Virus record (IMG/VR): IMGVR_UViG_3300022745_000628
Span: 96,001 to 160,000 of that record
Origin: a virus
Length of the DNA stretch: 64,000 nucleotides
Strand: one strand, 5' to 3'
The notes under the pieces are model-generated. The model was not told the DNA's origin. It searched no databases and saw only the letters and a program-made list of their open reading frames with translations. The stretch's first letter is position 1. Each line of letters opens with the position of its first letter. Positions 50,259-54,705 of this stretch are shown in pieces. Both the position numbers and the translations under genes were made by a program.

Positions 50259-52142
50259 TTAAGTCGACGCTGCTTGCAGCTCATCCGTCCAAACAGTGTC
50301 GTAATCGCCCATTTCTTCGTATTGAATGTCGTTTAAACGCATATGCTGGATAGCGTCTGAAAAATCAGGCCATGCGCGGTTCATGTGCCAGAGCGCGGCA
50401 CATCCGATATTGACAGCTTGCGCAAAGTCGTCCGTAAGCATCGGGTTGCGCGTAATCGTGTAAATGTCGCTACCGCTTCGCGACTCGAGCTTGTTTTCAA
50501 TAAGCGCCAAGAAATCGCGAATTAAGCCGGCATTTTCAGTGTTTACATAGTCATATTTGAAAAATTTGACTTTTTTGTACCTAATCGCGTTACACAGATT
50601 CAATAAAGACCGTGTTTTATCCAAGCGATATCGATCGCGAGCGTGTACTGTGCTGGCTGGTACGTGGCGGATAATGTTGCCTGCCGCCGATCCCACATAT
50701 TCAATAGGAATAATGTGCTGCAGCTTTAAACCAGTACTTACCATGACCGTTTCACGGATAGTTCCAGCCCCAGTGTAATCGTGCGCAATATGCGAACAAT
50801 TAAACGCCTGGTACCAGTGCTGCAACTCTTTAGCTTCTAACACGTGATTTTGCGATTGCACCATCCGCTTTGCCCAGATCACGTGTATTTCGCCGGAAGG
50901 TAAATAGCCTAGCACGGCGATAACTGTAAACGACGTTTGAGACTCTCCGCCTCCGCCCCAATCCACAGCCATAATTTTCATATGGTAATCGCGCAGGTTA
51001 TTTACCATTTTCAAATCCGGCCTTCGCGAGTTATCGAACGGAAGTATGGCCGCACTTCTCAATTCTGTCTCGGTAACTAGCTTTTGTCCGGCGTCGATAG
51101 ACTCGCCTAACACTTCGTTGCAGAATTTTGCGCGCGTCATGTTCCCAGCGCCATTACGCTTAGCCAGCAACAAACTCCATTTGTCCGGATTAGCGTAGTG
51201 CAGCGGCAAGATAACTTGCGGTATGTGGTACCCTGCAAACTCCCAGCGTCGCTCGGGAAAGCGGTGGACCCATCTACCAGTACGAGAGTACAGAAAGTAC
51301 TTGCAACGCGCGCAGCGCAAGCCAGGGCGCTCTTCTGAGATAAATTCGGAGTATTCTCCAAACATGTTATCTAAATCAAATTCAAGCGACGGAATGTTCC
51401 ATTTGTGGCAGCGCGTACATTTGATGACCCATTCGGCTTGAGAACTGTCTCGCCATTTAGCTTCGATAGGATTATCGAGTGTCTTGGGTGTACCGCCGTA
51501 TCCAACCGTTGGAATCGGATCTTGAGCTGCCGACATTGTTTCCATGATGATCGGAAGCAGGTCGATATCAAGATCCTGCAGCTCGTCCAGCAAACAGCGG
51601 TATACGGATAGCCCGCGGATACGATCCGCGTTATTAGATGCGAAACTAAAGAACATCGTAGAGCCGTTGCGAAAGCTACGCTGCAACACGGAGTTCTCTG
51701 TGGATGTGTTGTACCATATCGCTTTAACCGGCGAATTATCGATCAGTGGTCGCACGTAATTGCTAGAAAATCGCCGTATTTGCTCATAAAGCGGCGTAAC
51801 GTGAAGCGTTTTGTAATGAGGTATTGCCGCGGACATCATAACACTGGTAGCCGCCATAGACTGTGATTTAGACAACTGGCGCCCAGCTTTGAGTAACCAA
51901 CTTTTTGGTTGCGCCAGTCGAAAGATAGGCGTGAACGGAAAGTAGTTTTTAAGGCTGTACGGCTTCCCGTTGAGGCTCAAGCACAGTGGCAACAAAACTT
52001 CAAAACTAGGGAGCGCCTTTAATGTGGCGAGCTCCTGAATTTGTTGAAGTCTATCTGTCAATCGCTGACTCTTGGCCGAGTCAGGTTTAGCCCATTCGGA
52101 AACAATGCTATTGATGCGTGATTCTCTTGTAGCAATTTGCAT
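50259..52142 (-). CDS. terL: terminase large subunit (GpA-like)
   Basis: KPYSL..YFPF; Walker A-like KAGRQLSKS; Walker B RGLSVYRCLLDELQD; GYGGTPKT; C-x2-C Zn motifs; nuclease-domain MAVDWGGGG; terminal DDFAQAVN. Confidence 0.9.
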   Translation of the reverse strand: MQIATRESRINSIVSEWAKPDSAKSQRLTDRLQQIQELATLKALPSFEVLLPLCLSLNGKPYSLKNYFPFTPIFRLAQPKSWLLKAGRQLSKSQSMAATSVMMSAAIPHYKTLHVTPLYEQIRRFSSNYVRPLIDNSPVKAIWYNTSTENSVLQRSFRNGSTMFFSFASNNADRIRGLSVYRCLLDELQDLDIDLLPIIMETMSAAQDPIPTVGYGGTPKTLDNPIEAKWRDSSQAEWVIKCTRCHKWNIPSLEFDLDNMFGEYSEFISEERPGLRCARCKYFLYSRTGRWVHRFPERRWEFAGYHIPQVILPLHYANPDKWSLLLAKRNGAGNMTRAKFCNEVLGESIDAGQKLVTETELRSAAILPFDNSRRPDLKMVNNLRDYHMKIMAVDWGGGGESQTSFTVIAVLGYLPSGEIHVIWAKRMVQSQNHVLEAKELQHWYQAFNCSHIAHDYTGAGTIRETVMVSTGLKLQHIIPIEYVGSAAGNIIRHVPASTVHARDRYRLDKTRSLLNLCNAIRYKKVKFFKYDYVNTENAGLIRDFLALIENKLESRSGSDIYTITRNPMLTDDFAQAVNIGCAALWHMNRAWPDFSDAIQHMRLNDIQYEEMGDYDTVWTDELQAAST

Positions 52143-53780: not shown

Positions 53781-53811
53781 GATCGATCTGAGTGTTTGAT
53801 ATTAAAGTTTG

Positions 53812-53870
53812 TAAATGTTAAATGTAATGTGAATGTTAGATAATTTAAAATGTTAGATAAATGTAAATGT
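53812..53870. repeat. AT-rich tract with seven AATGT copies (DUE/iteron-like)
   Basis: TAAATGTTAAATGTAATGTGAATGTTAGATAATTTAAAATGTTAGATAAATGTAAATGT; TGTTAGATAA occurs twice. Confidence 0.85.
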
Positions 53871-54026
53871 GTGCGATGATGTAAGTAAACGCGTGGAATG
53901 ATAATGCCAAGTTGGCGCGGGTTGTTTTGATTTGGTTTAGGAAAGCCCTTGAGGGTTGAAGACATGATAGCAAGGAATTTGAATTGGCAACGTACTATTT
54001 TTCAAAATTGCCAAAATAGTTTGCTC

Positions 54027-54160
54027 AACCACAGAAGTAAGACCACTAGGGCTGGTGGAGCCGCCCATAGGCGAGACCACCCGAACCTGACGCTAGGAAG
54101 GTTGTGGTTTTACTTTCTGTGTGTTCTAGCGAACCCACTATGAAATAGGGGGTTTGCTAG
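54027..54160 (+). ncRNA. candidate structured RNA (or ssDNA) element: three-way junction plus hairpin
   Basis: P1 54031-54046/54104-54120; P2 GGTGG/CCACC with inner CGCC-cata-GGCG; P3 AACCT/AGGTT; then hairpin 54126-54160. The non-canonical pairs are G-U on the + strand. Confidence 0.45.
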
Positions 54161-54345
54161 TAGACCGTCCAGAGTCCTCGTTTTGCCTTTTAAAATCGAC
54201 GTACGTCCGGGCTAGAGTCCTCGTTTTTGGTCATGTGTCCTCGTTTTTTACGATTTTCGCCAAAAAACGAGGACTCTGGACGGTCTATAGAAGGGTCGCG
54301 AGGACTCTAGCCCGGACGTAGAATCAAAAACGAGGACACATGACC
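54161..54345. repeat. three perfect inverted repeat pairs in crossed order A-B-C-A'-B'-C' sharing the core GTCCTCG(TTTT)
   Basis: A 54161-54184 / A' 54264-54287 (24 bp); B 54202-54223 / B' 54299-54320 (22 bp); C 54229-54248 / C' 54326-54345 (20 bp). Each pair was checked base by base. Confidence 0.95.
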
Positions 54346-54705
54346 GAGATTGACAGTTAATAAACTAATGTTAACGATTTAAAATTAGTATTTGTGATTG
54401 AAGCTACCACGGTAAAATTTACCGATGCCGCGTTGTCCGACCGTTTTTGTCGCGCACACCCAGGACGTATTTTTGACTTCCAGGCTTCCTTAATTTGACC
54501 TAGGGCGAGTCGAAAATTTTTCAAAAAAAAACTTGCTGCTTAGCCAATATCAGGCTAGTCTGCGGTGGTTTAAGTGCTTTCGCACACTCCGGTTCGCAAA
54601 ATTCGGCAGCGCGCTGGCATCAAAATCCAACGTAAAGCGTATGTACTTAAATTGTGTTATGTAATAACTTTTGTTAGATGCGTTTGTAAGAAAGAAGTGT
54701 GATAT

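Follow-up and report, generated by a model that had tools for sequence, protein, structure and literature searches.

A crossed array of inverted repeats ahead of a Rep_1-like gene in a large metagenomic phage: a possible binding array of an origin-like region

The locus and its repeat array

The DNA considered here, referred to as the window, is a stretch of 64,000 nucleotides (nt) from IMG/VR virus record IMGVR_UViG_3300022745_000628; it comprises bases 96001–160000 of a 193,796-base pair (bp) virus contig, and all coordinates below are window positions unless they carry a locus label. Our subject is an array of six repeat arms at 54161–54345, which lies inside a 926-bp gap without a credible gene. 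The neighbouring genes are all oriented rightwards and, read in this direction, the locus presents an RNase HI gene, an AT-rich 17-bp tandem repeat, a hairpin block, the array itself, the genes for P0003 and P0001, a conserved gene of 352 amino acids (aa), and the genes for SbcD, SbcC and a helicase (Table 1).

The array is built from three inverted-repeat pairs of 24, 22 and 20 nt, each with 100% complementarity, that follow one another in the order A-B-C-A′-B′-C′: every flank variant occurs once per orientation, and the sequence of variants is unchanged from one half to the other. The gaps between partner arms are 79 nt for A/A′, 75 nt for B/B′ and 77 nt for C/C′. Common to all six arms is the motif GTCCTCG (hereafter, the core), located at 54174, 54217 and 54237 on the plus strand, and at 54268, 54299 and 54331 on the minus strand; a T-run follows the core in five of the six, the exception being B′. 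The shared core permits additional pairing registers, namely, C with A′ (13-bp stem, 12-nt loop) and B with A′ (15 bp). A preliminary description of the window, made from its sequence, had drawn attention to the crossed order, the three exact reverse-complement pairs with their coordinates, the core common to all arms and the C–A′ register, and each of these was borne out. The flanks resemble diverged copies of a single ancestral site of ~24 nt, those of A and B sharing TA..CGTCC..AGA. Considered by its cores alone, the array is an ordinary dyad; what departs from a mirror arrangement is solely that A′ and C′ have exchanged flanks, and the oddity is, therefore, narrower than a first impression would convey.

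The array is confirmed as real and lies far beyond chance. Apart from these three pairs, the genome has no perfect local inverted repeat of at least 16 nt (within a span of 400 nt), and the longest arms in shuffled genomes (n = 10) were only 11–14 nt; moreover, the genome contains no further crossed pair with arms of at least 10 nt, and the cluster of GTCCTCG cores is single-copy. The locus has a sequence that is 100% identical in three independent assemblies (two ENA samples and one Logan run), and it is spanned at 100% identity by two MEGAHIT contigs from different samples (197.5 and 5.7 kb) as well as by the IMG/VR record. Misassembly, for which the preliminary description had proposed a check, is thus unlikely. 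Separately, a 1.9-kb Logan contig of SRR7106578 (L119) starts at 54184, the last base of arm A; we considered this position as a genome terminus, but judged it to be a coverage break.

Comparable arrays were sought in sequence collections using several patterns. A 14-mer pattern scan gave single chance matches only; a pattern of convergent cores found one unrelated contig family, with a hairpin that has a promoter-like loop; and a pattern of direct cores found 109 metagenome and 54 species-genome loci, nearly all of them coding or minisatellite sequence, or chromosomal terminator-like repeats. The gap and its surroundings had no match by DNA similarity in phage and plasmid collections, and no recurrent promoter-like motif links the gap with the rest of the genome. 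Two other loci deserve mention. In a 1.3-kb metagenome contig (JAAUXV010201824.1; L242:361-686), at least seven copies of GGTCCTCGTTTT occur in both orientations, with several perfect inverted repeats of 13–19 nt that cross one another; the contig is geneless, and its similarity to the phage is limited to the core, such that its array could be either a coincidence or a related binding-site array. At the extreme end of an IMG/VR contig, L331:13324-13535 is a perfect inverted repeat of 105 nt with a 2-nt loop, most likely a fold-back assembly artefact.

Table 1. Coordinates of features at the array locus and at the corresponding loci of two relatives
Feature	Position	Strand	Description
Large terminase gene	50259–52142	−	gpA-type; 2 kb left of the array
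P0002	53226–53780	+	RNase HI-like, 184 aa; directly upstream of the gap
AT-rich tandem repeat	53810–53870		17-bp unit, 3.5 copies (Tandem Repeats Finder); within a 32% G+C tract, 53781–53930
Hairpin block	53930–54160	+	Adjoins arm A
Arm A	54161–54184	+	24 nt; unique 13-nt flank, core GTCCTCG at 54174–54180, then TTTT
Arm B	54202–54223	+	22 nt; unique 15-nt flank, then core at 54217–54223
Arm C	54229–54248	+	20 nt; unique 8-nt flank, core at 54237–54243, then T-run
Central palindrome	54237–54274		13-bp stem from the C and A′ cores plus T/A runs; 12-nt loop ACGATTTTCGCC
Arm A′	54264–54287	−	24 nt; exact reverse complement of A
Arm B′	54299–54320	−	22 nt; exact reverse complement of B; no A-run at core
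Arm C′	54326–54345	−	20 nt; exact reverse complement of C
Sigma-70-like promoter match	54357–54385	+	Weak; 9/12 positions, not above shuffled expectation; just after C′
P0003	54706–55089	+	127 aa; 35% identical homologue elsewhere in relative L123
P0001	55067–56125	+	352 aa; Rep_1-like Zn-ribbon protein, candidate array binder; 0.7 kb downstream of the array
P0001-like gene, L360	L360:5707-6771
P0001-like gene, L348	L348:6367-7620
Repeat region, L360	L360:6771-8189		Non-coding; ~42-nt hairpin unit, 13 copies, every 58–67 bp; 11-bp tandem TGTTACGTGCG, 8 copies
Repeat region, L348	L348:7620-8079		Non-coding; 9-bp tandem ACGCGGAAT, 4 copies, and serial hairpins

Spacing and helical phase of the cores

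The centres of the cores, at 54177, 54220, 54240, 54271, 54302 and 54334, correspond to 0, 4.1, 6.0, 9.0, 11.9 and 15.0 helical turns, such that all six point to the same side of the helix (R = 0.96; Monte Carlo p = 7.5 × 10−4); the A/T tracts are roughly phased as well. A lattice of 31.4 bp fits the cores with residuals of at most 0.6 bp, with the exception of B, which is shifted by one full turn, and in a post-hoc test an equally good fit arose in 3 of 200 000 random arrays. Three direct sites are followed by three inverted ones, and the offsets between partners are 94, 82 and 94 bp. Phased and lattice-spaced cores of this kind have the look of protein-binding-site arrays. The spacing would also match two DNA gyres of ~94 bp on a dyad-symmetric oligomer, with partner sites adjacent on neighbouring gyres.

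Single-strand folding

Folding of the array as a single strand is very strong, with z-scores of −7.9 and −7.6 for the two strands as DNA, and −8.1 as RNA. The minimum-energy fold is a nested rod: the core of A pairs with that of C′ over 11 bp, B pairs with B′ over 22 bp, and the cores of C and A′ contribute to a 13-bp stem with a 12-nt loop. Using folding programs that do not score pseudoknots, forcing A:A′ or C:C′ costs 14–19 kcal/mol in DNA and 16–18 kcal/mol in RNA. Moreover, three long helices, each of about two turns and with linkers down to 5 nt, would presumably form jointly only through the threading of a free end. Given that the nested rod is favoured and that threading would be needed, both a triple knot and a set of three cruciforms are unlikely, and the spacers of 75–79 bp make cruciforms in duplex DNA implausible, the central hairpin excepted. 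The structural proposals of the preliminary description fare accordingly: the triple pseudoknot is disfavoured relative to the nested rod, of the three cruciforms only the central palindrome is realistic, and for the multi-state switch the strong folding speaks in favour, but the energetic cost of the crossed helices against.

Folded as DNA, the central palindrome gives −14.9 kcal/mol (z = −7.1), and its hairpin is also present in the minimum-energy fold; the outer and inner pairs of cores have their dyad at 54255.5. The palindrome is a likely candidate for a point of melting or nicking. Neither the array region nor the adjoining hairpin block matched an Rfam family.

The surrounding genes and features

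The protein encoded directly upstream of the gap, P0002, had no Pfam match, but a profile of 30 homologues matches the full length of Escherichia coli RNase HI chains (E = 1.5 × 10−5), with Asp38, Glu78 and Asp111 invariant. Between this gene and the array, the AT-rich tandem repeat would be a possible unwinding element. The hairpin block that follows contains a long stem at ~54027–54124 and a 15-bp hairpin at 54126–54160 (−11.5 kcal/mol as DNA); folded as RNA, its plus strand reaches −83 kcal/mol (z = −4.9), and its minus strand −70.6 kcal/mol (z = −4.3), being 12 kcal/mol less stable. With these modelled folds, the block may act as a structured RNA or as a signal for single-strand initiation. 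To the right of the array, a perfect TTGACA at 54350–54355 precedes the promoter match, which could at best weakly be put forward as driving the downstream genes. No DnaA boxes were found in the gap, and the neighbouring genes scanned included no recombinase family, such as an invertible DNA switch (inverton or shufflon) would be expected to have close by. For P0003, searches of Pfam, PHROGs, NCBIfam, PADLOC, PDB sequences and the ESM atlas provided no family or atlas lead. The terminase gene is on the minus strand; the other large genes of the genome and its monotonic GC skew run with the plus strand.

The Rep_1-like protein P0001

The gene product of interest as a candidate binder of the array is P0001. 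In the ESM atlas, it falls among clusters of Rep_1 proteins, the initiators of pC194-type rolling-circle replication (features, 0.95–0.96; structural template modelling score, 0.55–0.56 over ~240 residues). Among plasmids, tblastn matches it best to the Rep_1 protein encoded on a 2.8-kb Comamonas plasmid, to which it aligns in pairwise BLASTP (2 × 10−6) across the Zn-ribbon (CG-x4-CP-x-C) and motif I, these two elements being all that the Rep_1 alignment of P0001 covers. When P0001 was compared with a Rep_1 alignment using hhalign, an E-value of 0.0017 and a probability of 15% were obtained, and a Rep_1 profile scored P0001 above 2000 of 2000 shuffles. No homologue was found among 5.8 billion proteins, PADLOC and PDB sequence searches were negative, and Rep_1 and G2P models had no match in the whole genome; a single-sequence AlphaFold model of P0001 was unusable (predicted local distance difference test score, 34). 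Judging from the sequence comparisons and the predicted fold, P0001 is probably a Rep_1 derivative, albeit one of doubtful catalytic competence. A foreign acquisition of the gene was considered and rejected, given that its G+C content and codon usage are phage-like and that it has positional counterparts in two relatives (see below). At 53795–53805, 15 nt past the stop codon of the RNase H gene and beside a small palindrome, there is a stretch, TTGATATTAA (TTTGATATT near 53795), that we take to resemble the phiX174/pC194-type nick core, although by count it is at chance level.

Relatives and the slot behind RNase H

Homologues of the terminase define a large family of ~200-kb metagenomic phages; protein queries with the RNase H and the terminase for close relatives in IMG/VR gave no match. 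Two loci that keep the RNase H–SbcD arrangement, L360 and L348, are organized alike: the RNase H gene is followed by repeat-rich non-coding DNA, a gene of 354 or 417 aa, respectively, a homologue of the conserved 352-aa gene, and SbcD. The 354- and 417-aa proteins share the signature ACG-x4-CP(F/Y)CY-x-R with P0001 (BLASTP, 2 × 10−5 and 8 × 10−5), and, having such counterparts, P0001 is not a stray acquisition. The three proteins form a fast-evolving family of ~350–420 aa, in which the histidines of the HUH motif are replaced in all three members; on sequence grounds, they may represent a non-nicking derivative of a rolling-circle initiator that was recruited by jumbo phages. The repeats upstream of the L360 gene, the L348 gene and that of the present phage are entirely different, and those of L360 and L348 are themselves candidate origins of their phages. 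A protein and its upstream repeats that co-diverge at a fixed slot are the classic signature of a pair of initiator and iterons, or of regulator and operator, and it is this co-divergence that gives the strongest support to a reading of the arms as binding sites.

The array itself is carried by no relative examined, and 80 further relatives (1.14 Mb) had neither long repeats in crossed or nested order nor an array of cores. Other repeats do occur in the family. In L121 (terminase 61% identical), two perfect pairs of 15 and 13 nt are crossed as A-B-A′-B′ at L121:7838-7932 (identical in L122:381-475), 70–160 bp upstream of the start codon of the terminase gene; they have no shared core, and because a single nt separates A from B, both helices cannot form fully. 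In the syntenic slot of L123, at L123:4558-4704, a GGGGGT-type motif occurs three times in direct and once or twice in inverted orientation inside a nested imperfect hairpin, and it precedes a GHKL-ATPase gene that stands in place of the P0001-like gene.

A model for the array

Overall, we conclude that the array is most likely a protein-binding site for replication or control, rather than a DNA or RNA knot. More specifically, with a probability of roughly 45%, the six arms constitute the binding array of an initiator or regulator in an origin-like region. The arms would serve as iteron-like sites of ~18–24 bp centred on the GTCCTCG core, in an origin or control region that heads the replication–recombination module of the phage and whose surroundings resemble those of an origin; their most likely binder would be P0001. 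Of the readings offered by the preliminary description, that of paired initiator sites fits best, in view of the phasing, the lattice, the Rep_1-like gene and the slot in the relatives, whereas its structural readings are weak.

The crossed order itself may reflect the geometry of the complex. We propose that a dyad-symmetric oligomer carries the DNA wrapped around it in two ~94-bp turns, which would bring site i alongside site i+3, read upside down; with wrapping of this kind, the order would come out crossed and the offsets between partners nearly constant. By enumeration, a whole-block inverted duplication or single inversions cannot yield the pairing (1,4)(2,5)(3,6), and nested inverted self-insertion of a hairpin repeat would give, for example, (1,4)(2,6)(3,5), but never the observed pattern; additionally, the element is single-copy. 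With block rearrangements excluded, only site-by-site copying or selection is left as a source of the pair-specific perfect flanks. These could have arisen through local copying between juxtaposed partners, by template switching or gene conversion, the constant offset suggesting that the choice of partner would be set by juxtaposition in the wrapped complex; by analogy with known cases, template switching would be a reasonable origin. Alternatively, the flanks could result from selection for pairing between partners once the complex is melted, presumably starting from the central hairpin. It is a slender prospect that the crossed flanks are functional in the sense that, after melting, intrastrand pairing with the partner on the next turn zips the gyres together and locks the origin open; were it so, this pairing would represent a novel mechanism of origin opening, and inverted repeats that preserve their order at a constant offset would be its signature.

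A number of observations weigh against a binding array in an origin-like region. The identity of partner flanks is not required by protein binding alone, and simple fold-back copying favours the nearest partner, not one that is 94 bp away. The lattice test was designed after the spacing had already been seen. Cumulative GC skew has no inflection at the array locus, and the segment 53781–54705 does not contain CTTGATA, the consensus at which Rep_1 origins are nicked (PMC10378824). The Rep_1 link of P0001 is remote: the protein has no match in Pfam, NCBIfam or PHROG, hhalign probabilities for the link are only 12–15%, and the C-terminal half has no detectable similarity to Rep_1. Furthermore, the HUH motif of Rep_1, WHPHFHF, aligns with INPDELIV in P0001 and with non-histidine residues in both counterparts, in an alignment that, at 19–23% identity, is unreliable and does not establish a loss of activity. 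Finally, the closest relatives (terminase 61–69% identical) and L123 have neither such a gap nor P0001 after RNase H, so the array is not essential to the phage family.

Alternative explanations

The most credible of the alternatives, albeit unlikely, is a transcriptional operator without any role in initiation, at which a repressor or activator (P0003, P0001 as a mere DNA binder, or an unlinked protein) would control the replication–recombination genes. Dyad-like cores phased on one helix face would suit such a site, as would the TTGACA and promoter match directly after C′, the uniform rightward orientation of the neighbouring genes, and the lack of a recognizable HUH motif in P0001, which befits a protein that only binds DNA. 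However, shuffled sequence gives promoter matches that are just as good, the pair-specific flanks are left unexplained, and the succession of RNase H, AT-rich repeats, further repeats and a Rep-like gene is an order more typical of origins. Rather improbable, in our estimation, is a functionless by-product, in which the cores are or were binding sites, and the crossed arms are only what three events of template switching or gene conversion left behind, or in which the cluster as a whole is a hairpin-type selfish repeat in decay. Template switching is able to homogenize short inverted-repeat arms (PMC8604942, PMC7202029), the flanks have the appearance of diverged copies of one site, no relative keeps the element, and its extra complementarity is unused in the minimum-energy fold. 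Nevertheless, three independent and order-preserving choices of partner would be needed (1 in 27 if random), each favouring a distant core over the nearest; the arms are perfect and free of decay, the lattice and the phasing speak for constraint, and the element is single-copy both in the genome and in the collections searched.

There is also a small chance that the array is a single-strand switch, whereby RNA or displaced single-stranded DNA toggles between the nested rod and A:A′/C:C′, much as the pMV158 transfer origin has hairpins that exclude one another, for example to time priming or nicking. The very strong folding on either strand would be in keeping with this, as would the greater stability of the adjoining hairpin block on the plus strand, the RNase HI gene just upstream, and the precedent of a nicking origin at which a protein drives a switch between hairpins (PMC5863519). 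The crossed helices nevertheless lie 14–19 kcal/mol above the nested state, all three could presumably coexist only by threading, and no Rfam family is represented. We are still more sceptical of a packaging site (pac or cos) bound by a small terminase and wrapped round its ring. Small terminases do wrap phased sites, a gpA-type large terminase gene is only 2 kb away, and L121 has its different crossed pair of perfect repeats shortly upstream of the terminase start; yet there are four other genes between the terminase gene and the array, which looks towards the replication module, no small terminase was identified, neither long assembly ends at the array locus, and in none of the 80 relatives are there similar repeats less than 10 kb from the terminase. 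The terminase sites envisaged in the preliminary description receive no support from the intervening genes, the relatives or the assembly ends. An assembly artefact, or a collapse of inversion isoforms, is scarcely credible: inverted repeats can mislead assemblers, and the short Logan contig does start at the inner edge of arm A, but two MEGAHIT contigs and the IMG/VR record agree fully across the locus, the arms (at most 24 nt) are shorter than the assembly k-mers, and a graph with k = 31 would not be expected to branch at 54184 for an A/A′ inversion.

For uncultured jumbo phages, replication origins and their initiators are, to our knowledge, essentially unmapped. The analysis points to a conserved slot in which an RNase HI gene, repeat-rich DNA and a rapidly evolving Rep_1-like Zn-ribbon protein precede SbcCD, and which offers itself for testing as the origin–initiator pair of a large family of metagenomic phages. 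Were the proposed wrapping true, order-preserving inverted repeats could reveal nucleoprotein geometry straight from sequence; were it false, the locus would remain a clean natural case of partner-specific repeat homogenization.

Comparison with known systems

Several classes of replication site share parts of this architecture. In common with theta iteron origins, the array has several sites of ~20 bp in helical phase, an AT-rich tract, an initiator-like gene and sites that appear to co-evolve rapidly with it. Those origins use direct repeats of 17–22 bp and reserve inverted copies for autoregulation, whereas here three copies have one orientation and three the other, each variant being present once per orientation, and there are neither DnaA boxes nor a Rep_3-like neighbour. 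Inverted arrays that assemble two opposed oligomers are found in the GAGGC pentamers of SV40 and polyomavirus, the E1 sites of papillomaviruses and the gene II protein repeats of Ff phages. These, too, combine short sites in both orientations with a central melting point, and are bound by domains of HUH-related fold; they are, however, mirror-symmetric and shorter than 70 bp, and none is known to have partner identity that preserves order across ~94 bp.

In quasipalindrome correction, template switching perfects imperfect inverted repeats and extends them into their flanks (PMC7202029, PMC8604942). This normally concerns one nearby pair, and three distant partners in preserved order are not predicted by it. 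No description of a fully crossed, lattice-spaced trio of repeats was found in the literature.

Plasmids of the Rep_1 type (pC194/pUB110) resemble the locus in having the candidate origin upstream of the rep-like gene, and P0001 shares with their initiators the Zn-ribbon, motif I and the predicted fold; a comparison of layout with Rep_1 origins finds the six phased sites and the 13-bp/12-nt hairpin 0.7 kb upstream of P0001, with binding predicted. They are nicked at CTTGATA (PMC10378824), which is absent from the array; moreover, the HUH motif is not kept, and the setting is a 194-kb phage rather than a plasmid of 2–5 kb. At the transfer origin of pMV158, there are three partly overlapping inverted repeats, from which the binding of MobM selects one hairpin (PMC5863519), and there, as here, three inverted repeats are not all extrudable at once. 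The stems of that origin are of 7–12 bp with 4-nt loops, lie within 43 nt and exclude one another through shared arms, whereas the array has separate arms of 20–24 nt placed 75–79 nt apart, with exclusion arising from their crossing.

The double-strand origin of pMV158 comprises the nic hairpin IR-I, the proximal repeats and three distal repeats of 11 bp that are bound by hexameric RepB (PMC1851628, PMC9943647). Its repeats are all direct and in tandem, without partner-specific flanks, its nick sequence is known, and its initiator belongs to another Rep family, whereas P0001 has no recognizable catalytic motifs. Both loci, nevertheless, set a hairpin-capable palindrome near helically phased short repeats (84 bp away in pMV158); in pMV158, an oligomeric initiator of the HUH family is encoded nearby and distorts the DNA on binding, a part for which P0001 would be the candidate here. 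Membership of the array in any of the families compared is not demonstrable, but, by analogy, it would work most like this origin.
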